IMG/VR virus record: IMGVR_UViG_3300011116_000834
Coordinates: 1-64,000 of that record
Origin: a virus
DNA: 64,000 nt
Direction: 5' to 3' (one strand)
Below, one piece after another: positions 1-28,557 of this stretch (position 1 is its first letter; every line of letters starts with the position of its first letter). Position numbers and translations under genes: made by a program. The notes under the pieces are model-generated. The model was not told the origin of the DNA. It ran no database searches and worked only from the letters and a program-made list of their open reading frames with translations.

Positions 1-6
1 GCCCCT

Positions 7-73
7 GTTGATAGTATCTGGTTATCGGACGGTCCGATAAAATACTATCAACTTTTATCGGACTTTATATTAT
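7..73. repeat. Palindromic intergenic element (GTTGATAGTA / TTATCGGAC-G-GTCCGATAA / TACTATCAAC), copy 1
   Basis: Nested inverted repeat at 7-52; the sub-motifs recur in nearly every intergenic gap up to 5250. Confidence 0.85.
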
Positions 74-119
74 CAGAAGCTAAATCGACAATGAAATGCA
101 GAAATATCGTCTGAGGGAT

Positions 120-153
120 TTGCATCGAGCCGATTCGATGGCATACTTGTGGC
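120..153 (+). promoter_or_regulatory. Early sigma70-type promoter, leaderless (TTGCAT-16-CATACT-6-ATG)
   Basis: The same geometry occurs in front of 11 cassette ATGs in 1-5510. Confidence 0.8.
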
Positions 154-420
154 ATGAGCAACGACTCCAACAACATCGGAACTAACCCTCTCGCAACTCC
201 CGCCAAGCGCGGACCCAAGCCGATCAAGACGCTTGATCAGCTGCAGGCAGCACTTCAGCAGGAAATCCTGATGACTGAGGTGCGCAAGATCGACAAGAAG
301 ATCGCGACCCATACGCGCGCACGCAAGCGCGCTCAGGCGCAGATCAGCGACTGCGACCGTGCAGTCGCGGAACTTACCGCGCTCCGCGCTGAGTTCCTCA
401 AGACCTACGGTCTTGCCTGA
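154..420 (+). CDS. Early hypothetical protein, KRGPKP basic motif plus coiled coil
   Basis: ATG 6 nt after the -10 box; GC-rich codon usage; hairpin at 441-465. Confidence 0.8.
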   Translation: MSNDSNNIGTNPLATPAKRGPKPIKTLDQLQAALQQEILMTEVRKIDKKIATHTRARKRAQAQISDCDRAVAELTALRAEFLKTYGLA

Positions 421-493
421 CCCGACATTGGCAAGGTGACGGGGGAGGGGAGAACCCCCTCCCCCACTCTACACTTTCAACAGAAACGAGAAA

Positions 494-865
494 ATGGAAA
501 TGTTTGACCCAAAGAGCATGATTCAGGGGAAAAACCCCAACCTCGACAACGCGCAAGTTCTCGCTGCCTTCATGGATCTCGTACGGCTGAACCTTGGTGA
601 TGTTCTTCGGAACAATCGTCACAATATGCGCATGAGTTCGACCGATCTGATCGTTCTGTCGGCTGCGTGCCGAGTTCTGGCCAATATCAGGATTCAGATC
701 GGCGAGGGAAGCGAGTGGACTAGTTACGACCAGTCCAACCTTGGCATGGACATTCTCAGGTACTGCGAAGAGCAGGCTCTCAATGCAAAATCGGAAAATA
801 CTTCAGTTTCCGATGTTGCAGACCGCATCTTCAACGATCTCCGCAATGACGGACTGATCGGATAA
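494..865 (+). CDS. Hypothetical protein (123 aa)
   Basis: ORF track; followed by a GC hairpin and T run (about 887-923). Confidence 0.75.
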   Translation: MEMFDPKSMIQGKNPNLDNAQVLAAFMDLVRLNLGDVLRNNRHNMRMSSTDLIVLSAACRVLANIRIQIGEGSEWTSYDQSNLGMDILRYCEEQALNAKSENTSVSDVADRIFNDLRNDGLIG

Positions 866-924
866 CAAATCGTTGTGGTTCATGTGACCCTCGTCCGATA
901 ACACGGACGGGGGTTGCTTTTTTA

Positions 925-1012
925 TTATCGGTCAAGGTCCGATAACGGTTGATAGTATTTTATCGGATCGTCCGATAAGGAACTATCAACTTTTTATCAG
1001 ACCGTCCGATAA
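925..1012. repeat. Palindromic intergenic element, long copy; 937-978 is identical to 3690-3731
   Basis: gtccgataacggttgatagtattttatcggatcgtccgataa (42 bp) occurs twice. Confidence 0.85.
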
Positions 1013-1044
1013 AGCTAAATATCATGGAAATGTTCCTCAATGAT

Positions 1045-1078
1045 TTGCTTCTCACGATTCTGATGGCATATTGTTGGT
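1045..1078 (+). promoter_or_regulatory. Early leaderless promoter TTGCTT-16-CATATT-6-ATG
   Basis: Matches the cassette promoter consensus. Confidence 0.8.
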
Positions 1079-1351
1079 ATGAACAACTCTACCAAGTACC
1101 CCGACATCGTAGTGGATCTCTCCCGCGTCAGCGGGAACTCCTTCAGCATTTTGGGTGCAGTCACCCGTGCCATGAGGGAGGCAGGGATTCCCATCACGGC
1201 AATCGACAAGTTCCGCACCGAAGCCATGAGCGGCACTTACAACCACTTGATCTTCACGGTGACCAAGTGGGTTGCCGTCGAGGGGTTCACCCCCTACGCA
1301 GACGATGATGAGGATGAGGATGAGGATGAAGACGAGGAGGATCTTGACTGA
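1079..1351 (+). CDS. Conserved small phage protein (GNxFxILG...EAMSGxYxHL type) with acidic tail
   Basis: Promoter-defined start; recognisable phage motif; D/E-rich C-terminus. Confidence 0.8.
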   Translation: MNNSTKYPDIVVDLSRVSGNSFSILGAVTRAMREAGIPITAIDKFRTEAMSGTYNHLIFTVTKWVAVEGFTPYADDDEDEDEDEDEEDLD

Positions 1352-1473
1352 TGACGAGATTCAACAAGGGAGATGCATGGTTCTTTCATCGGTTTCACGG
1401 AATGGACGATTCCGATGACCATGATGGGGCAGACGAGAGGGAAGAGGAAGAACCATGCAATGAGGATGAATAA
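1351..1473 (+). CDS. Small acidic protein (40 aa, MTRFNKGDAWFF...), not in ORF track
   Basis: TGATG overlap with the upstream stop; terminator at about 1480-1510. Confidence 0.55.
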   Translation: MTRFNKGDAWFFHRFHGMDDSDDHDGADEREEEEPCNEDE

Positions 1474-1610
1474 TCCTCGACCCCATGCACGGCGCGTGCG
1501 TGGGGTTTTTATTTGCCTATGGGTACTATCAACTGGGAATAATAAAAAACGCCCCCTGCCCGTCGTCAGGGCAGAGGGCGCATGAACCCCATGATTATGA
1601 GACGAAGTTG

Positions 1611-1808
1611 TTATTCGCCTCTCTGCGTTTGGCGAACTTGGTCTAGAAGGATCAGACCGATGCTGCCGATCATCACCCACGCCAAGAACGACCATCCGAT
1701 GTAAAGCAGGAAGGCGAACATGAGAGGAATGGCCGCAACGACGAGGATTCCGACGATCAGGCCGATGGCCACAAGCACGGTTTCGAGGATGTCTTTTGGG
1801 TTGGTCAT
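1611..1808 (-). CDS. Small membrane protein (2 TM, MTNPKDIL...)
   Basis: Hydrophobic; starts just after the 1810 stop; hairpin at about 1550-1581. Confidence 0.7.
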   Translation of the reverse strand: MTNPKDILETVLVAIGLIVGILVVAAIPLMFAFLLYIGWSFLAWVMIGSIGLILLDQVRQTQRGE

Positions 1809-1809
1809 G

Positions 1810-2013
1810 TTAGGCCTTCCCCATTCCGAAGCAATGCCCACGCGAGAGAATGATCTCCGCGACTGGCGTGATCTCACCTGCGTCGATGCGGTCCATGCAG
1901 AGATCCCCGAAAGATTCGTCCGTAATCGTCAGGATACGGCATCCGTCGAGCGTGTTCCAAGTCTCCCCATCGGGGAAGACTACGATTGTGTGGTGCGTGT
2001 TCTTGTTGTCCAT
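1810..2013 (-). CDS. Early hypothetical protein (MDNKNTHH...)
   Basis: Start set by minus-strand promoter TTGCCT(2047-2042)-16-CATACT-6-ATG. Confidence 0.75.
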   Translation of the reverse strand: MDNKNTHHTIVVFPDGETWNTLDGCRILTITDESFGDLCMDRIDAGEITPVAEIILSRGHCFGMGKA

Positions 2014-2173
2014 GCCATGAGTATGCCATGTATTTAGCTCGAGGCAAATCATATCTACGATATTTTTGGCTTTGTTGTTATCGGAGTTGATAGTATCGCG
2101 GTTCATAATAGATATTTTTGGAAATATCATGCGAGTGATTTGCTTTGCCTTGATCTGAACCTATATTTGTCGT

Positions 2174-2362
2174 ATGAACTACCCCTTTGACGACTACTCA
2201 GATTTCGATGGTAGCTACTCAGATTTCGACGGTAGCTACAGCTACGGCCTGACTGAGAAGCAGATTCAGGATCGTATGGACTACGCGATCAACGGCAACG
2301 AGCTCGAGGATGATCTCGACTTCGGTGATCTTTTCGACGACGAAGACCCCGACGACGAGTAG
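2174..2362 (+). CDS. Small highly acidic early protein with YSDFDGS tandem repeat
   Basis: Promoter TTGCTT(2140)-16-TATATT-6-ATG; 21-bp tandem duplication at 2194-2235. Confidence 0.75.
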   Translation: MNYPFDDYSDFDGSYSDFDGSYSYGLTEKQIQDRMDYAINGNELEDDLDFGDLFDDEDPDDE

Positions 2363-2467
2363 ACCTCGTCTGTCGGGATTTTATCATACCCCCTACTATC
2401 AACATGGGAAAATAAAAACAACAACCGCTTTCGCGGTTGTTGTGTGATAATCGGTTTGTATCGTTTA

Positions 2468-2773
2468 TTACATCCGCGCTGCGACCAAATCATCAATGAT
2501 CTGATCAATCTTCTTGACACAGACCTTGCGGATCTCTTGAGGAACATCGTCGCCCTCAAAGAGGAAGTCGCCGTTCTCATCGACAACGACGAGGTGAAGA
2601 TCGAAACACTCGACCTCAGGAACAGTCTGAGTGCGACGACCAGCTGAAGCGAGGGGATAATCCCAAGCATCGGTGCGCTCGGTGTAGCTCACCATGATGT
2701 CTCCATAAACGAAGACCTGCTTGCCGTTGTAGACGATTGGCGCGAACTTGTTGTATTCGATTTCCATTTCCAT
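2468..2773 (-). CDS. Early acidic hypothetical protein (MEMEIEYNK...)
   Basis: Promoter TTGCAT(2807-2802)-16-CATATT-6-ATG. Confidence 0.75.
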   Translation of the reverse strand: MEMEIEYNKFAPIVYNGKQVFVYGDIMVSYTERTDAWDYPLASAGRRTQTVPEVECFDLHLVVVDENGDFLFEGDDVPQEIRKVCVKKIDQIIDDLVAARM

Positions 2774-2910
2774 ACCCACAATATGCCATGTATTTGGCTA
2801 GATGCAAATGCATTTAGCGATATTTCTGCATTTCGTATAAAAGTCCGATAAGGGTACTATCAACCCCGCCCCCCCATTCGGAGGGCGGGGTGGGTGAGGA
2901 AGACTGAGAG

Positions 2911-3219
2911 TTATTCGTGACCCCCCGTCGCGTAGAACTCATTCGACCACTCTTCAAAGAGTGGGTGCGTCGAGGTGAAGTCAACCACATTCTCCATCGG
3001 GGAGCAGGTGTGGTAACCATCCTGCAAGAGTGTGGCGCGTCCGATCTTCTCGCCATCCTTGAAGACGGTGAGGAAGCAGAGGTCATCGACCGCACGCACC
3101 TCCTCATATACGAGATCCGCGTTGTCGGAGCGGGAGAGGAGAAGATATCCCGCTCCGACGAGCGAGAAGGTGCATCCGTGATTGGCAAGGTGACGGGTGA
3201 GTGAGAGGATTGCGTTCAT
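2911..3219 (-). CDS. Early hypothetical protein (MNAILSLTRH...)
   Basis: Promoter TTGCAT(3253-3248)-16-CATACT-6-ATG. Confidence 0.75.
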   Translation of the reverse strand: MNAILSLTRHLANHGCTFSLVGAGYLLLSRSDNADLVYEEVRAVDDLCFLTVFKDGEKIGRATLLQDGYHTCSPMENVVDFTSTHPLFEEWSNEFYATGGHE

Positions 3220-3361
3220 GCCCATAGTATGCATTCAAATTAGCTCAATGCAAATCATCTTGGTGATATTTCTCAATATGATGTTATCTACCAATAAGCT
3301 AAAAGATAGAAATATCACCAAGATGATTTGCATCTTCAGAATTGGAATGCATACTGTTGGT
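3220..3361. promoter_or_regulatory. Back-to-back divergent leaderless promoters containing a perfect 26-bp inverted repeat
   Basis: atgcaaatcatcttggtgatatttct (3248-3273) versus agaaatatcaccaagatgatttgcat (3308-3333). Confidence 0.8.
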
Positions 3362-3616
3362 ATGAACACTCTTGAACGCAACACCGTGATCGCCGCTCTC
3401 CAGAACGGACTCTGCCGAGTCCAGTTTATCAAGGCAGATGGGACCGAGCGCGTGATGATCGCCACGCTCGCCGCATCGTACCTTCCCCAGACTACTGGCG
3501 GTACGCTCACCCGCTCTCCCGATCTCATCGTCTGCTTCGATACGGGAACCAACGCATGGCGTTCCTTTTATCTCCCCCGCGTGATTGAGTTCACGCCACT
3601 CTCAAAAGCGGCATAA
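3362..3616 (+). CDS. WYL_2 / Sm-like SH3 beta-barrel protein (DUF2693-type)
   Basis: VQFIKADGTERVMIATL...CFDTGTNAWRSF motif; promoter-defined start. Confidence 0.8.
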   Translation: MNTLERNTVIAALQNGLCRVQFIKADGTERVMIATLAASYLPQTTGGTLTRSPDLIVCFDTGTNAWRSFYLPRVIEFTPLSKAA

Positions 3617-3795
3617 GCCGCAAAGGACAACTCTCCTTTGGCAAACCCCTGACACGGTGTTGGGGGTTTGTCTGTTCCTATAATATAAAGTCCGATAACG
3701 GTTGATAGTATTTTATCGGATCGTCCGATAACAACAAAGCCAGAAATATCGTGCAAGTGATTTGCATCGAGCCAAATACATGGCATACTGTTGGT

Positions 3796-4113
3796 ATGAA
3801 CACCGCAGCAACCACAATCGCCAACCGCATCATCATGACCATCAAAACCTTCTGGCTCCCGCGCGGGATGCGCGTCGAACGATGCGACGAGCGCATCGAC
3901 GGGTCTTTCGATCTTGAGATCCGCATCGGGCATGGCGAGTCGCTCATCATGGGCATCGACGGCAACTGGGCGAAGGAGCCGGGCGAGAGGAATGTGAGTG
4001 TTAATTTCTCGCTGAAGGTCGACCAGTTTCAGGGGCATGAGCAGATGCGCCAGCTCGCGCAGTTGCTGGGTACGATGGTCCGCATCGGTGATGTTCTTGA
4101 AGAGAACCTCTGA
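3796..4113 (+). CDS. Early hypothetical protein (MNTAATTI...)
   Basis: Promoter TTGCAT(3762)-16-CATACT-6-ATG. Confidence 0.75.
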   Translation: MNTAATTIANRIIMTIKTFWLPRGMRVERCDERIDGSFDLEIRIGHGESLIMGIDGNWAKEPGERNVSVNFSLKVDQFQGHEQMRQLAQLLGTMVRIGDVLEENL

Positions 4114-4278
4114 AAGAGAACCTCTGACCATCTCCTGATTATCATCCTCTCCTCTCCCAAGCAAGGGGGAGGATGATAATCTTTAAACTACTATCAACCG
4201 CCGCGTCCGATAACAAATAAAACACAAAATATCCCTCAAGCGATTTGCATTGAGCTAATCATGTGGCATACTCTTGGC

Positions 4279-4893
4279 ATGAAGATTCTCATCTCACTCA
4301 CCGTTCTTGCGCTTTCACCTTTGGCATCTGCTTCCCTCACCTTTGAGGATCTTCCGATGCCTCCTGACCAGTACGCGACCATCCGCATTGCGGAGATGCC
4401 GCCCGCCTACAGCGGATTCACTTTCAGCAACTGGGGCTATTACACCGTCCCGAACGGCATCGACTTCAATGGTTTCGATGACGGCATCATCGGAACCCGT
4501 GCGCTCTACACTCCCACCAACAACGACAACGATGGGGGCGAGAATCGCTACACGATCTTTCGCTCTGAGCGGTTCACCTTCACTAGCGCAAGCGTGACGC
4601 AGTTGTTCGCTGCCGATAACGGTGGCGACGATTTCGGTGGCGATATCACTCGCCTCACGATCAAGGGATTCGTCGGTGACCATCAGGTCTACAGCGTCAA
4701 CCAGTACCTTGCGTATGCGGTTCGCCTGACTGTTACCGCTCCTGCGGTTGAGGTGGATCGGCTTGAGTTCTCGACGGATACGGGCGAAGGCTTCGCGATC
4801 GATAATCTCTATGCAGACCCGATTGTTCCTGCTCCTGCGTCGATCGCGCTCCTCGGTCTTGCAGGTCTGATCGGAAAGAGGAAGCGCAACTAA
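4279..4893 (+). CDS. Secreted PEP-CTERM-type (PAP variant) surface protein
   Basis: Signal peptide MKILISLTVLALSPLASA; C-terminal VPAPASIALLGLAGLIGKRKRN; promoter TTGCAT(4245)-16-CATACT-6-ATG. Confidence 0.85.
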   Translation: MKILISLTVLALSPLASASLTFEDLPMPPDQYATIRIAEMPPAYSGFTFSNWGYYTVPNGIDFNGFDDGIIGTRALYTPTNNDNDGGENRYTIFRSERFTFTSASVTQLFAADNGGDDFGGDITRLTIKGFVGDHQVYSVNQYLAYAVRLTVTAPAVEVDRLEFSTDTGEGFAIDNLYADPIVPAPASIALLGLAGLIGKRKRN

Positions 4894-4941
4894 ATCGGCA
4901 AAATGATTTGCCTTCGGTCGATTTGAGTGTATACTCTTGGC

Positions 4942-5145
4942 ATGGACACCACTCAAATCGACAACTGCTCGGACAACTACCTCATCGACGCATTCATCGA
5001 CCTCGACGCAGACTTCGATCTCTGCGTCACGGCAGCAGAGCGCGCTCGTCACCAAGAACTCAGAAATGAGCTGAAGGAAGAGATTGAGGCGCGTGGCTAC
5101 ACCGTCCGCGCGATCAACGGCGGATGGGAAATCAAGCAGAAGTGA
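4942..5145 (+). CDS. Early hypothetical protein (MDTTQIDN...)
   Basis: Promoter TTGCCT(4908)-16-TATACT-6-ATG; hairpin at about 5169-5197. Confidence 0.75.
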   Translation: MDTTQIDNCSDNYLIDAFIDLDADFDLCVTAAERARHQELRNELKEEIEARGYTVRAINGGWEIKQK

Positions 5146-5303
5146 CAAAACCGACATAAAAGGGATAGACCCCCCAACCAGTAATGGTGGGGGGTTTATT
5201 AATTTAATAATTTATTATTTTTCACCCACAGTCCGATAATGTTGATAGTATGACAAAGATTATCCCATACATTGGGATAATCGGTGATCGTAACTCCTTT
5301 GGG

Positions 5304-5474
5304 TTAGATGGTGTTGAAAAGGTTACGGGACTCGAGCTCGGCAAGAATGCGAGCTCGCTCATCCTCTTGGGCGGGATCGCGAATGATCCACTCGAGCTGC
5401 TTGAGCACGCGAATCAGCTCAGCTTCGGTGCGCTGCGAGAGGGGGATGTACTTGTGTGCTTCGATGGTGTACAT
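5304..5474 (-). CDS. Early small protein, 56 aa (MYTIEAHKYIPLSQRTEAEL...), not in ORF track
   Basis: Promoter TTGCAT(5508-5503)-16-CATACT-6-ATG; open to TAA at 5304. Confidence 0.75.
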   Translation of the reverse strand: MYTIEAHKYIPLSQRTEAELIRVLKQLEWIIRDPAQEDERARILAELESRNLFNTI

Positions 5475-5716
5475 GCCATGAGTATGCCATATGATTAGCT
5501 AAATGCAAGCGATTGTATTGATATTCTTTGCTGGTGCATCTGGTACAGACCATCCAGGTAAACCAGAGGGGTCATCACACTATGGGAAAGCTAGAAGGGA
5601 CTTATTATGGGACCCAGGGCTAGCAATTTTTCCCGCTACCAAAATCCCCCTTCAAAGTTGATTCCCCGAATTCCAAAATTTTTTCGCTATGAAAATTGAG
5701 TTTCTATAAGTCGCAT

Positions 5717-5749
5717 AAAAAACCCCCCATTGCTGGGGGGTTTTGTTTT
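5717..5749. terminator. Rho-independent terminator (bidirectional type)
   Basis: aaaaacccccc-attgct-gggggtttt. Confidence 0.7.
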
Positions 5750-6248
5750 ATTGATCAACTGCAAATATGGGAATTTCACCCACATCACCCAATCCTCCTA
5801 CTCCGAGGAATGGATATTTCGGTATATTCGGAATTAATCCAAATAGAGAGTTTAAATCGTTTGATGTATCGATCCCTGCATTTACTATGCTTCTACCATT
5901 AATGGATCTTATGAATCTATTTTGTCCAGACAATGTTCTCTTTTGCATTTTTCCAGTGTTTAGATTGAAGAACCATACTGTTGGACGAACAACATAACCA
6001 GATCCAGTGCTATGGGAATAGTTTGGCATGTTAAGAGGTGAATCTGGTGAATTCGCTGGTATTGCTGGACCAATGTTCAAGTTTCCGTTTTCATTTACAA
6101 CCCAATAGAAGTCGTTGCCATCCAGAAACCATTTACCTCCACCATTGGGTGGATATTCCGATGGTGGGATATTATCCATATTAAGGTCTTCATTCAATAA
6201 GGATTCGATTAATCTTTCTCTGATTCTATTTTTCATTTGATCGTGCAT
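5748..6248 (-). CDS. Putative head-internal protein, leader ...RLIESLLNE, Pro/Trp/Asn-rich
   Basis: Leader motif shared across the cluster. Confidence 0.7.
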   Translation of the reverse strand: MHDQMKNRIRERLIESLLNEDLNMDNIPPSEYPPNGGGKWFLDGNDFYWVVNENGNLNIGPAIPANSPDSPLNMPNYSHSTGSGYVVRPTVWFFNLNTGKMQKRTLSGQNRFIRSINGRSIVNAGIDTSNDLNSLFGLIPNIPKYPFLGVGGLGDVGEIPIFAVDQ

Positions 6249-6262
6249 ATTCTTATATATTG

Positions 6263-6270
6263 TATAAATA
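6263..6270 (+). promoter_or_regulatory. T4-type late promoter TATAAATA
   Basis: Exact gp55 consensus upstream of ATG 6297. Confidence 0.65.
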
Positions 6271-6296
6271 TCCTATACAACCTGAAGGAAAAATAT

Positions 6297-6587
6297 ATGA
6301 ACTTAAAAGAATATTATAGAGCAAGATTAAGTAATCTACTCAGCGAAGAAAAAGCGAAAAAGCAAAGTTTGGAAAAACAGTCCGATACCGCATTGGGAGA
6401 TTTGGAGGGTTTGATTGACGATGCGCATGCTAGGATGAAAAGATCTAATGATCCTAGATTCGCTGCGCAGCATAAAACCTTAGCAAACCATTTCATGGAT
6501 GCATGGAATCACCATATGGTCGGTGAATACGACAAGGCAATTGAAGTTGCTCGTCGTGGAATAGCAGCAAAAAGTAAGAAAGATTGA
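6297..6587 (+). CDS. Putative head-internal protein (MNLKEYYRARLSNLLSE...)
   Basis: AAGGA RBS; late promoter; LxE-ended leader. Confidence 0.7.
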   Translation: MNLKEYYRARLSNLLSEEKAKKQSLEKQSDTALGDLEGLIDDAHARMKRSNDPRFAAQHKTLANHFMDAWNHHMVGEYDKAIEVARRGIAAKSKKD

Positions 6588-7447
6588 ATAGAATTCTAAC
6601 CCAGATATCGTGTGAACTTGCTGCGTCTCCAGAAGAGCATCGCAGCGGTCTCATGCATAGAAGGAATCTTCCACCAGGAACTGGAATGCTCTTTCGGTTC
6701 GATGCACCAGACATTCTATCCTTCTGGGGAAGAAACACTCTCATTCCGCTCGACATTGCATTCATTGATGAGAATGGAATCATAGAGAGCATCGGAGCAA
6801 TTTCTCCACAGTCTCGGAATACCATTCGCAGCAATGGTCCATGTCTATATGCACTTGAGGTTTCTCGCGGAACATTCGATGAGCATGGTGTCCAAATAGG
6901 GAACTTCGTGCAAATGGAAAATAATAAATATGGAGTCGATGTTTCCATATATGAGGCATCAGAAAAAAATTTAAGGGAAAACACATTGAAAAGTTTAAAG
7001 ACTTTACTCAGGCAAAAATTAATAGAAAAGCAATTGTATAGTAATAATGCTCGTATAGAACAATTAAATCCTAACAATACAGGTAATAAAACAGAGGAAC
7101 CTGAATATTCACCTGAAGATCCAAATTGGCCTTCTTGGATTCCTATATTTCCTCCAGACCTTATAGAAAATGGTAGAGATATATGGATATTTAATCCCAA
7201 AGATGGATTATGGCATCATATACTTTATACTGGTTATGATACAATAATAATTAAAGATGAAATCCCATTTGGATTCCCACCAGGTGGTCATCTATATTGG
7301 AGACCAGGTATGGATGAACCTAGATTCCATTGGCCAATTATTGATAATGATAATTCATATGCTACAGAAATTAATTCACCTTCATCTACTCAAACATTAA
7401 AACCCAATTTTAATACATCACAAATAGTAGATACTAAAATAGATTGA
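6584..7447 (+). CDS. DUF192 domain fused to a Pro/Trp-rich module
   Basis: GLMHRRNL..GMLF.F....FWGRNTLIPLDIAFID...YALEV signature; C-terminal half resembles 7460-7948. Confidence 0.8.
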   Translation: MNRILTQISCELAASPEEHRSGLMHRRNLPPGTGMLFRFDAPDILSFWGRNTLIPLDIAFIDENGIIESIGAISPQSRNTIRSNGPCLYALEVSRGTFDEHGVQIGNFVQMENNKYGVDVSIYEASEKNLRENTLKSLKTLLRQKLIEKQLYSNNARIEQLNPNNTGNKTEEPEYSPEDPNWPSWIPIFPPDLIENGRDIWIFNPKDGLWHHILYTGYDTIIIKDEIPFGFPPGGHLYWRPGMDEPRFHWPIIDNDNSYATEINSPSSTQTLKPNFNTSQIVDTKID

Positions 7448-19450: not shown

Positions 19451-19953
19451 ACATATTCGTTCTTGATGAAAATCCGCATATCGCAGCACATATGATGTGT
19501 GACAAGCATGTGGTAAAGATGATCGTGGAGGGATGTCAAATGCTCTCCACGAATCATCGTTTATCTGGCAGTCATGTTGTGTATGCGCCTATCAATTTGT
19601 ACAAGCAATCATTTCAAAATCACCCATGTACCATATGGGCGAGGCAGACTACCGATAATTATTTTTGGTTAGCAGAGCATACTCACGAATTATCGCTTGA
19701 GTATACTCGTCGTTACAATAAAATTCATTTGTCACATGCCATGACTGAATGGTTTAGATTTCATCCTCCTTTACAAATTCCAAGAGGAGATTTAACACCA
19801 TTTGCTCAGGCAATGCCAGAGGAATTTAAAGTTCCTGGGGATGCTGTTGCTGCGTATCGTAAATATTACATTGGGGCAAAGTCAAAGTTTGCTAAATGGA
19901 AATACACAAATCCTCCAGATTGGTACTTGACACGATCTGGAATGCTGGTATAG
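19447..19953 (+). CDS. Pyrimidine-dimer DNA glycosylase / endonuclease V family protein
   Basis: MNIFVLD...CDKHVVKMIVE..QMLST...NHPCTIW...EYTRRYNKIH...FAQAMP signature. Confidence 0.85.
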   Translation: MNIFVLDENPHIAAHMMCDKHVVKMIVEGCQMLSTNHRLSGSHVVYAPINLYKQSFQNHPCTIWARQTTDNYFWLAEHTHELSLEYTRRYNKIHLSHAMTEWFRFHPPLQIPRGDLTPFAQAMPEEFKVPGDAVAAYRKYYIGAKSKFAKWKYTNPPDWYLTRSGMLV

Positions 19954-19965
19954 TTGACATATAAC

Positions 19966-21972: not shown

Positions 21973-22281
21973 ATGCCTTACAGACTACACATCGATATTC
22001 CACTCAATATGAGTGAGGATGACGCTCGTCTTGCTTCTATTCAAATTCTAGGACTTCTTGCCGATGTCGATGAGAAGGCAGTCATTCTCAATGCAATTGG
22101 TGTCGAGGAGATCAATTATCGTCTTGGTCATGATGATGATCGTCAGAAGAGCAATTACCTTCAAAAGAATGAAAATGGCCATGTGAACAATAAGAAGTCA
22201 AGGATCACTGTTCCAAAAATGGAACAAATTGAAGCAATGCAAAAATTGGCAAAACTTGATGAAGAACTTGACATCCTATAG
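21973..22281 (+). CDS. Hypothetical protein
   Basis: AGGA RBS; ORF in operon. Confidence 0.7.
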   Translation: MPYRLHIDIPLNMSEDDARLASIQILGLLADVDEKAVILNAIGVEEINYRLGHDDDRQKSNYLQKNENGHVNNKKSRITVPKMEQIEAMQKLAKLDEELDIL

Positions 22282-22303
22282 AAATCTGCTATAGTATGAA
22301 CAC

Positions 22304-24988: not shown

Positions 24989-25025
24989 CTTGACTTTGAG
25001 TTGCGGTATGCTATGATTACGGCAT

Positions 25026-28295: not shown

Positions 28296-28329
28296 TTGAC
28301 ATTACTAAATATGGCGATATACTCCAATC
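28296..28329 (+). promoter_or_regulatory. Leaderless promoter TTGACA-16-TATACT-6-ATG
   Basis: Same geometry as the cassette promoters. Confidence 0.8.
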
Positions 28330-28557
28330 ATGATATTTAACATCTCAAAAGAAGATTTCTCAAAAAGAGTAGAAAATTATGTCAAAGAATGGAATGTCTC
28401 CTATAGGGAGGCAACCACTCACTTCTTTGAAGAATATTCTTTTGATTTTTCTCTTGCTCCTAAACTTTTAACTCAACCATTATTGGAAAAGTTAGAACAA
28501 GAATATAGAGATATGAATTATCTTCCAAAAATTAAAAATAAATTGCCATTTGATTGA
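28330..28557 (+). CDS. gp33: Late promoter transcription coactivator gp33
   Basis: FSKRVE...SYREA...KLLTQPLLEKLEQE..DMNYLPK...KLPF; lies upstream of gp32. Confidence 0.8.
   Translation: MIFNISKEDFSKRVENYVKEWNVSYREATTHFFEEYSFDFSLAPKLLTQPLLEKLEQEYRDMNYLPKIKNKLPFD

Follow-up and report, generated by a model that had tools for sequence, protein, structure and literature searches.

A GC-rich island of promoter–AUG cassettes with predicted leaderless transcripts in an uncultured T4-like freshwater phage

The window analysed here is the first 64 kb (positions 1 to 64,000) of a single 108,402-bp contig, which constitutes the whole of IMG/VR record IMGVR_UViG_3300011116_000834. At its left end lies a 5.5-kb block, referred to below as the island, in which 11 small units each open with a near-identical promoter placed so close to an ATG that the transcripts are predicted to lack a leader. 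The source genome is an AT-rich (37% GC) uncultured freshwater (lake) T4-like myovirus. The contig encodes T4-type baseplate wedge proteins, namely a gp6-like subunit (phrog_219) and a second one (phrog_438), and the closest cultured phages by gp6, at 25-30% identity, are T4-like cyanophages, the Methylophilales phage Melnitz and pelagiphages (pelagimyophages). Island coding DNA, which makes up 69% of the island, has 54.9% GC and island non-coding DNA 42.8%, against 36.9% in the remaining genome, and both GC and GC at third codon positions (GC3) drop sharply at 5.5-5.7 kb. This compositional contrast had been described in a sequence-only reading of the DNA and is borne out here. CheckV estimates completeness at about 60% and the contig begins inside inter-cassette repeats, so that 11 cassettes are a lower bound and the island probably extends past position 1.

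A search of the window with TTGCNT-N16-YATAYT-N6-ATG gave exactly 11 matches, all within positions 1-5510 (Table 1), while 100 dinucleotide-preserving shuffles gave none; these are the same promoters and ATG coordinates that the sequence-only reading had put forward. When a 65-nt position weight matrix (PWM) built from the 11 sites was run over the whole 108,402-bp contig, no further site scored above 15 bits, leaving no copy outside 1-5510. The full shared module proved longer than the earlier motif and reads gAAATATC-N8-GATTTGCaT-N16-(TGg)CATAcT-nnTGGy-ATG-aAC, with an AAATATC box near -50 that stands a fixed 8 nt upstream of GATTTGC and an extended (TG) -10 element. The distance from the end of the -10 hexamer to the ATG is 6 nt in 11/11 copies, leaving no room for a Shine-Dalgarno (SD) sequence, and in every copy position -1 is C or T and position +1 is A. 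Primary-sigma (sigma-70) holoenzymes normally start transcription at such a distance from the -10 element, which is where the A of the ATG sits. A generic consensus scan of positions 1-6000 listed only one of the 11 island promoters, and its promoter-like sites were no more numerous than in shuffled sequence.

Each unit has the same anatomy: a GC hairpin, repeat boxes, the AAATATC box, TTGCAT, a 16-bp spacer, TGgCATACT, 6 nt and the ATG. Three pairs of units are divergent or adjacent, and the 60-nt arms of units 6 and 7 are 83% alike. The motif agrees with seven gene starts that the sequence-only reading had corrected, in frames that the mechanical list of open reading frames (ORFs) opens at 2130, 2779, 3234, 3197, 3751, 4261 and 4927, and the 56-aa gene that it had added is present as ORF 5304-5474 (minus strand). 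The motif can be used to fix starts miscalled by standard gene callers and to mark early-gene islands in uncultured phage contigs.

Most units had been said to end in a GC hairpin, and of the 12 gene ends tested, 11 were followed by one (dG -12 to -28 kcal/mol, in many cases with a T-run behind it). Only the gene at 4279-4893 lacks a hairpin and abuts the next promoter. From each hairpin to the next -35 box there are 56-128 nt, with the repeat boxes in between. Only one hairpin, at 4917-4962 (dG -19 kcal/mol), overlaps a promoter, its arms lying on either side of the -10 box and the ATG of unit 10. RNA begun at that ATG would not form it, whereas RNA that reads through from unit 9 would. The description of the units as self-contained thus holds at the level of sequence and comparison (hairpin, repeat boxes, promoter and ATG), with the reservation that unit 9 reads into unit 10. 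The further claim that the island is translated wholly from leaderless mRNA does not hold, because the genes at 494-865, 1351-1473 and 1611-1808 (minus strand) are second cistrons and no terminator separates 4279-4893 from unit 10.

The repeat boxes are nearly restricted to positions 1-5250. Within each unit, GTTGATAGT/TCCGATAA boxes sit between the terminator hairpin and the AAATATC box. At 7-52 they form a nested perfect palindrome, GTTGATAGTA-N5-TTATCGGA-N3-TCCGATAA-N2-TACTATCAAC, which is also listed, with variants, at 934-1012 and 3687-3731. The same box system is common to the islands of related contigs, five of which (G001-G005) were obtained by searching IMG/VR with the box pattern and a sixth (L049) by searching metagenomes; the boxes are present in the islands of all relatives found, including those without c154. 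The palindromic boxes could be a regulator site or a recombination site. Beyond unit 11, a non-coding junction leads from the island into the AT-rich backbone. The junction matched no Rfam family, an Rfam search of positions 1-7000 gave nothing at gathering score, and DnaA boxes (TTATCCACA) occur in L049 and L067 as single copies without enrichment. ARAGORN called a tRNA-Thr at 6012-6095, inside ORF 5748-6248 (minus strand); this call had no Rfam confirmation, is doubtful and was set aside.

Table 1. Coordinates of island features, and of promoters elsewhere in the contig (window positions unless marked as genome positions).
Feature	Position	Strand	Details
Inter-cassette boxes GTTGATAGTA and TCCGATAA/TTATCGGA	7-62		nested palindromes
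Further box sets	934-1012, 2078-2095, 2844-2864, 3687-3731, 4189-4213, 5232-5250
Unit 1 promoter	120-156	+	TTGCAT, N16, CATACT, N6, ATG 154; AAATATC box at 102
c154	154-420	+	88 aa; basic N-terminus plus helix
c494	494-865	+	123 aa; second cistron of unit 1, without own promoter; no family match
Terminator hairpin with T-run, end of unit 1	884-917	+	dG -24
Unit 2 promoter	1045-1081	+	ATG 1079
c1079	starts 1079 (pair spans 1079-1473)	+	90 aa; phrog_1933
c1351	1351-1473	+	40 aa; ATGA overlap; internal cistron
Terminator hairpin with T-run, end of unit 3	1549-1581	-	dG -28
c1808	1611-1808	-	65 aa, hydrophobic; internal cistron
c2013	ATG 2013 (pair spans 1611-2013)	-	67 aa; homologue in G001 island
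Unit 3 promoter	2011-2047	-	ATG 2013; divergent from unit 4
Unit 4 promoter	2140-2176	+	ATG 2174; gene 2174-2362, 62 aa, acidic
Two-way hairpin	2418-2443		common to convergent units 4 and 5
Unit 5 promoter	2771-2807	-	ATG 2773; gene 2468-2773, 101 aa
Unit 6 promoter	3217-3253	-	ATG 3219; gene 2911-3219, 102 aa; divergent from unit 7
Unit 7 promoter	3328-3364	+	ATG 3362
c3362	3362-3616	+	84 aa; WYL_2 SH3-like barrel
Unit 8 promoter	3762-3798	+	ATG 3796; gene 3796-4113, 105 aa
Unit 9 promoter	4245-4281	+	ATG 4279
c4279	4279-4893	+	204 aa; signal peptide and PEP-CTERM-like C-terminal anchor
Unit 10 promoter	4908-4944	+	ATG 4942; gene 4942-5145, 67 aa
Unit 11 promoter	5472-5508	-	ATG 5474; gene 5304-5474, 56 aa
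Other plus-strand hairpins	433-477, 1479-1507, 3639-3672, 4137-4181, 5164-5200	+
Other minus-strand hairpins	2863-2891, 5258-5282	-
Non-coding junction, island to AT-rich backbone	5510-5747 (~240 nt)		blocks conserved in G001 (L067 1420-1640) and L049
TTGACA-N16-TATAGT promoter	19927-19954	+	directly before phage tRNA-Lys (Lys/Gly)
tRNA promoter, likewise	22268-22295		tRNA-Ile/Glu
tRNA promoter, likewise	24990-25017		tRNA-Arg
Canonical promoter TTGACA-N16-TATACT-N6-ATG	28296-28332	+	outside island; ATG 28330; 75-aa AT-rich gene
Three more canonical promoters, N6/N7 geometry	ATGs at genome 74131, 104011, 107692		beyond window; 144-aa ORF at 74131

Transcripts of the 11 units are predicted, from promoter sequence, to begin at the A of the ATG, and the genes behind the promoters have the properties that such starts would lead one to expect. 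Over the first 40 nt after the 11 ATGs there is almost no structure: the mean minimum free energy is -2.2 kcal/mol, whereas windows inside these genes give -9.6 (p = 4e-8). The first 10 codons contain 70% A+C and 13% G, compared with 50% and 28% further into the genes. The 11 genes therefore combine the absence of an SD sequence with an unstructured 5' end; an AUG start was built into the search pattern, so that its presence adds no independent evidence. Homologues agree with these start codons. Two homologues of c4279 (P0002 and P0004, 88% identity) open at the motif ATG, whereas gene callers pick one farther upstream; the six proteins of the c154 family all have the motif ATG as their start, with MSN or MTN as first residues; and the phrog_1933 profile alignment opens at residue 2 of c1079.

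We also tallied the distance from TTG[AC][ACT][ACT]-N16/17-[TC]A[TGC][AG][ACT]T to the nearest following ATG that begins an ORF of 50 aa or more. Over the whole contig this spacing was 6 nt in 13 cases and 7 nt in one, every other distance from 0 to 40 occurring at most once. The five related contigs gave peaks at 6 (10 cases), 7 (6 cases) and 9 nt (7 cases), and the 9-nt cases mostly end in ACT-ATG, from which a 3-nt leader is predicted. In L049 and G001-G005, all 10 of the recorded promoters with a spacing of 6 or 7 nt likewise have Y at -1 and A at +1.

This geometry is not restricted to the island: four canonical promoters of the backbone share it (Table 1), as do backbone genes of the relatives. 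Leaderless geometry is a trait of the lineage, not of the island. The product that starts at 104011 has a dUTPase-like N-terminus and the one at 107692 is SpoU-like (both named by eye only); the promoter of the SpoU-like gene keeps the geometry in G002. The phage tRNA genes lie 7-11 nt behind near-consensus TTGACA-N16-TATAGT/TATGAT promoters, some of them TG-extended, which suggests that host polymerase transcribes the phage tRNAs early. The relatives' promoters are near-consensus as well (TTGACA with TATAAT or TACAAT) and lie 6-9 nt from start codons. Elsewhere in the backbone, SD-like cores occur in 44% of upstream regions against a background of 12%, so that the phage itself depends on canonical initiation. 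The proposal that leaderless cassettes serve to stay active when canonical initiation is shut down accordingly finds no support.

Other ways of reading the promoter elements were tried and rejected. As sigma-54 elements, TGGCAT and TTGCAT are in the wrong order and at the wrong spacing. A Bacteroidetes-type promoter (-33 TTTG, -7 TAnnTTTG) fits the spacing by eye and was rejected because the genome uses consensus TTGACA-N16-TATAAT promoters and SD-like sites, which are atypical of Bacteroidetes. A phage-encoded sigma factor that reads the -35 box was set aside: in this contig, which is about 60% complete, sigma region 4 had no match, and the single weak sigma region 2 match, at 77115, is compatible with a gp55-like late sigma. 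The TATAAATA late-promoter motif showed no overall enrichment (9 on the plus strand against 10.8 expected) and has no copy in the island. Together, the common 16-bp spacer, the near-consensus promoters of the relatives and the lack of a region 4 match point to the host primary sigma as the factor that reads both promoter classes.

Island and backbone genes also follow two codon regimes. GC at the first, second and third codon positions is 0.59/0.39/0.69 in island genes and 0.44/0.43/0.26 in backbone genes. The phage tRNAs (Lys-UUU, Gly-UCC, Ile-UAU, Glu-UUC, Arg-UCU, Gln-UUG and Leu-UAA) read the codons AAA, GGA, AUA, GAA, AGA, CAA and UUA. Within their codon families, the island and backbone shares are 0.12 and 0.53 for AAA, 0.33 and 0.85 for GAA, 0.18 and 0.67 for CAA, 0 (0/89) and 0.30 for ATA, 0.04 (3/74) and 0.49 for AGA, and 0 (0/112) and 0.18 for TTA. 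The relatives have similar tRNA sets and the same compositional contrast. From this we infer a host more GC-rich than the phage, in which island genes can be translated without phage tRNAs.

Among the island products, whose part in host takeover is a conjecture of the sequence-only reading, only c3362, c1079 and c4279 received a family assignment, and seven of the 10 proteins scanned had no significant Pfam or PHROG match. The c3362 product is a WYL_2 SH3-like protein homologous to T4 gp31.1. The c1079 product belongs to phrog_1933, which is widespread in phages and includes homologues in phages of Actinobacteria, Listeria and Campylobacter. The c4279 product is of secreted type, with a signal peptide and a PEP-CTERM-like anchor (VPAPASIALLGLAGLIGKRKRN); its look-alikes in a protein atlas are PEP-CTERM proteins, mostly from Pseudomonadota. 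An anchored product of this kind suggests that the host is Gram-negative and has an exosortase, and that the phage alters its cell surface. The Pfam and PHROG scans found no integrase, transposase or replication gene among the island proteins.

To compare the island with its relatives, we also searched with the promoter itself. The exact promoter pattern gave 48 single matches in IMG/VR, none of which exceeded 25 bits with the full PWM, and these are therefore taken as chance matches. The extended pattern gave two matches in metagenomes, L049 and L050. The latter (Ga0160423_10133249, 1-1748) was rejected as a chance match in an unrelated AT-rich phage contig; it is itself made up of cassettes of small genes, between which a GC-rich repeat of about 50 nt recurs with promoter-like sites behind it. 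IMG/VR protein searches with c494, c4279 and the c154 alignment brought up nothing new except G001.

In several relatives a block of 4-10 kb with 50-60% GC stands against AT-rich flanks of 33-40% GC. The block is flanked on both sides in G001, G002 and G004 and runs to the contig end in G003. G001 is syntenic with our contig over 16.7-32.9 kb at about 70% nucleotide identity, with its island on the same side of the backbone. An assembly chimera is ruled out by these internal islands and by the homologous junction of G001, and the occurrence of a near-identical (98%) form of the c4279 protein on seven contigs of up to 70 kb also speaks against it. Gene content is much less constant: across the five relatives and L049, homologues were found for three of the 14 island genes, namely c154 (two copies in G001 and one in L049, the sole island family common to those two), c2013 (in G001) and c4279 (in G002). 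In G002 the c4279 homologue (L076 12860-13493, minus strand) has no promoter of its own and directly follows a tRNA operon. It stands directly after a SpoU-like gene and tRNA-Gln/tRNA-Leu, the genes found at the right end of our contig, which makes it probable that the complete genome has the island next to this tRNA cluster.

Across 60-85 nt the promoter modules are 70-92% alike, yet the genes behind them are unrelated. Between units 3 and 8, whose genes are likewise unrelated, the identity is 86% over 79 nt, and between units 9 and 11 it is 92% over 37 nt. In G001 the first island promoter on the junction side is homologous to that of unit 11, but the gene behind it differs. That like modules precede unrelated genes, together with this homologous junction and promoter before a different gene, suggests, from sequence comparison with distant relatives, that the cassettes are recombinable and may have been shuffled.

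The islands of the relatives hold a different cargo, including AAA_5 ATPases, partner proteins of 800 aa and GP88-family proteins. In G004 (L079 10201-14975) and G002 (L075 1593-5367) an AAA_5 (MoxR/CobS-like) ATPase gene adjoins one that encodes about 800 aa and has no annotation; the ATG of either gene lies 7-9 nt from a consensus promoter. The divergent arrangement of this pair is conserved between G002 and G005. The AT-rich backbone of G001 also contains, at 8661-8974 of L073 on the complementary strand, an ARAGORN-predicted permuted (two-piece) transfer-messenger RNA-like gene with the tag AAPMRMAA, which, if real, could hint at the host lineage.

We think it probable that the 5.5-kb block is a hyperplastic early region made up of portable leaderless promoter–AUG cassettes that are read by the host primary sigma. 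Host RNA polymerase would read the island promoters soon after infection and start at the A of the ATG, which would give the first gene of each unit an mRNA without a 5' untranslated region or SD sequence. Translation would follow the leaderless route, aided by the A+C-rich, unstructured 5' end, and the hairpins would insulate units from one another. GC3-rich codons would dispense with phage tRNAs, which would fit expression before those tRNAs accumulate in a GC-richer host. With promoter and translation start held within about 40 bp, the module would act as a portable expression adaptor, and the 70-92% alike copies probably serve as recombination points. This interpretation retains from the sequence-only reading the island of modular units, the +1 geometry and the likeness to promoter/stem-loop (PeSL) cassettes, and gives up wholly leaderless translation and activity under shut-down of initiation.

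Several points weigh against this view. The +1 position is placed by promoter geometry alone, and assumptions are made about the promoter rules of the host and its ability to translate leaderless mRNA. Having a common origin, the 11 copies do not count as 11 independent observations. The trait is not uniform in the lineage, as 9 nt is the commonest spacing in G003 and G004 and some island genes there have ordinary SD leaders. The four backbone genes with leaderless geometry are AT-rich (GC3 0.22-0.41), so that early leaderless expression does not by itself impose GC-rich codons, and the codon contrast could also stem from a GC-rich gene pool. Finally, all 11 promoters depart from consensus in the same way (TTGCAT, CATACT) and have in common a spacer sequence and an upstream box, so that a further factor might be required.

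This last point carries the strongest of the alternatives, which we regard as unlikely but worth serious attention. It holds that the island promoters form a temporal class of their own, either dependent on a phage or host factor or silenced by one, which would act at the AAATATC box, the spacer or the palindromes; the leaderless geometry would remain in place. All 11 promoters have TTGCAT, CATACT, a conserved spacer (cgAGCyAAt..) and AAATATC at the fixed distance of 8 nt; palindromes of the form TTATCGGA-N2-3-TCCGATAA lie 30-110 nt upstream of promoters; and the genome uses two promoter dialects, with near-perfect TTGACA-N16-TATAAT promoters serving the tRNAs and the dUTPase-like and SpoU-like genes. 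However, the identity of the copies could reflect no more than recent duplication or gene conversion, and the 16-bp spacer with its TG-extended -10 element fits direct recognition by the primary sigma. We also found no candidate DNA-binding regulator. The product of c154 received no family assignment, and G002-G005, which carry the boxes, yielded no c154 homologue.

The sharp step in GC and GC3 at 5.5-5.7 kb, a motif vocabulary restricted to the island, and the homologues of c1079 in phages of Actinobacteria, Listeria and Campylobacter might instead be read as signs of a recent acquisition from a GC-rich phage, host or mobile element, whose composition and promoter style the island would have kept. 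We hold this to be improbable. The same boxes and the same contrast recur in at least five other AT-rich contigs with differing gene content, and G001 is syntenic and has a homologous junction; leaderless geometry and the 16-bp spacer also occur in backbone promoters, c3362 is homologous to a T4 protein, and the family scans of the island proteins found none for integration, transposition or replication. Least credible is the idea that the modules are real repeats while transcription starts elsewhere, upstream or a few bases before the ATG, so that leaders are short or ordinary and the closeness of the ATG is mere compaction: the 9-nt spacing of G003 and G004, usually with ACT-ATG and a predicted 3-nt leader, and the 30-nt SD leaders behind the same kind of promoter at some of the relatives' island genes speak for it, but here the spacing is 6 nt in 11/11 with Y at -1 and A at +1, an SD sequence cannot fit, there is no alternative promoter-like site between repeat boxes and module, and the predicted mRNA 5' ends are selectively unstructured.

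A wider picture can be offered, tentatively and with well under even confidence. The lineage may have a genome in two dialects: an immediate-early, GC3-rich island built on promoter–AUG modules of about 40 bp that need neither a ribosome-binding site nor phage tRNAs, and that capture ORFs from GC-rich pools for the first minutes of infection, and a bulk genome that awaits the tRNAs driven by the consensus early promoters. The module would then be both the unit of recombination and a general expression adaptor. The island would offer a test of codon dialect and phage tRNA timing as a means of staging gene expression, and a test bed for leaderless initiation in a host of Gram-negative type, as suggested by the PEP-CTERM-like gene.

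Parts of this arrangement have parallels elsewhere. Leaderless mRNAs from promoters that abut the AUG are familiar from lambda cI transcribed from PRM and from many genes of Actinobacteria, Deinococcus-Thermus and Caulobacter, and the middle and late genes of Thermus phage P23-45 are leaderless. Like these, the island genes have a -10 element 6-7 nt before an AUG that is the predicted +1, no SD sequence and an unstructured, A/C-rich 5' coding region; unlike them, they belong to a T4-like phage in which one near-identical module is repeated before each of a series of accessory genes. In the literature searched we found no description of leaderless cassette arrays in T4-type phages, and a differential RNA sequencing study of phiKZ reported no leaderless phage transcript (PMC8244752). 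Phage tRNA sets are known to offset the codon gap between an AT-rich phage and a GC-richer host, as in T4-like cyanophages, with a bias between early and late genes (PMC5683454; PMC11726456). The tRNAs found here likewise read A-ending codons common in the AT-rich bulk, but in contrast to those phages one contiguous block is nearly free of such codons (GC3 0.69 versus 0.26).

The closest comparison, and the one that the sequence-only reading had rightly chosen, is with the PeSLs of phages RB49 and phi1, which are repeated sigma-70-like early promoters with stem-loops, located in hyperplastic regions before ORFans (Arbiol et al. 2010, PMC2839356). The island resembles them in its repeated sigma-70-like promoters with GC stem-loops as terminators and, at sequence level, in an early promoter with an A/T-rich stretch upstream of the -35 box. 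It also shares their location, a hyperplastic region of a T4-type phage mostly upstream of small ORFans, with repeats before unrelated genes and a content that varies between relatives. PeSLs end in an SD sequence and a start codon (PMC2839356), whereas here the ATG lies 6 nt after the -10 element in 11/11 cases, with no SD sequence and, as predicted, no leader. The PeSL stem-loop lies within or overlaps the promoter; here it lies 56-128 nt upstream of the -35 box with a second repeat system in between, and only unit 10 has an overlapping one. A further difference is that the codon usage of the island departs from that of the rest of its genome. Shuffling and the formation of mini-circles were demonstrated experimentally for PeSLs (PMC2839356), while recombination in the island is suggested by sequence comparison. 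Taken together, the island is, as judged from its sequence, a leaderless variant of a PeSL array and not a member of the PeSL family. Should the predicted transcript starts hold, leaderless early accessory-gene cassettes would be on record in a T4-type phage for the first time, and the PeSL idea would extend to a module that holds the signals for both transcription and translation in about 40 bp.

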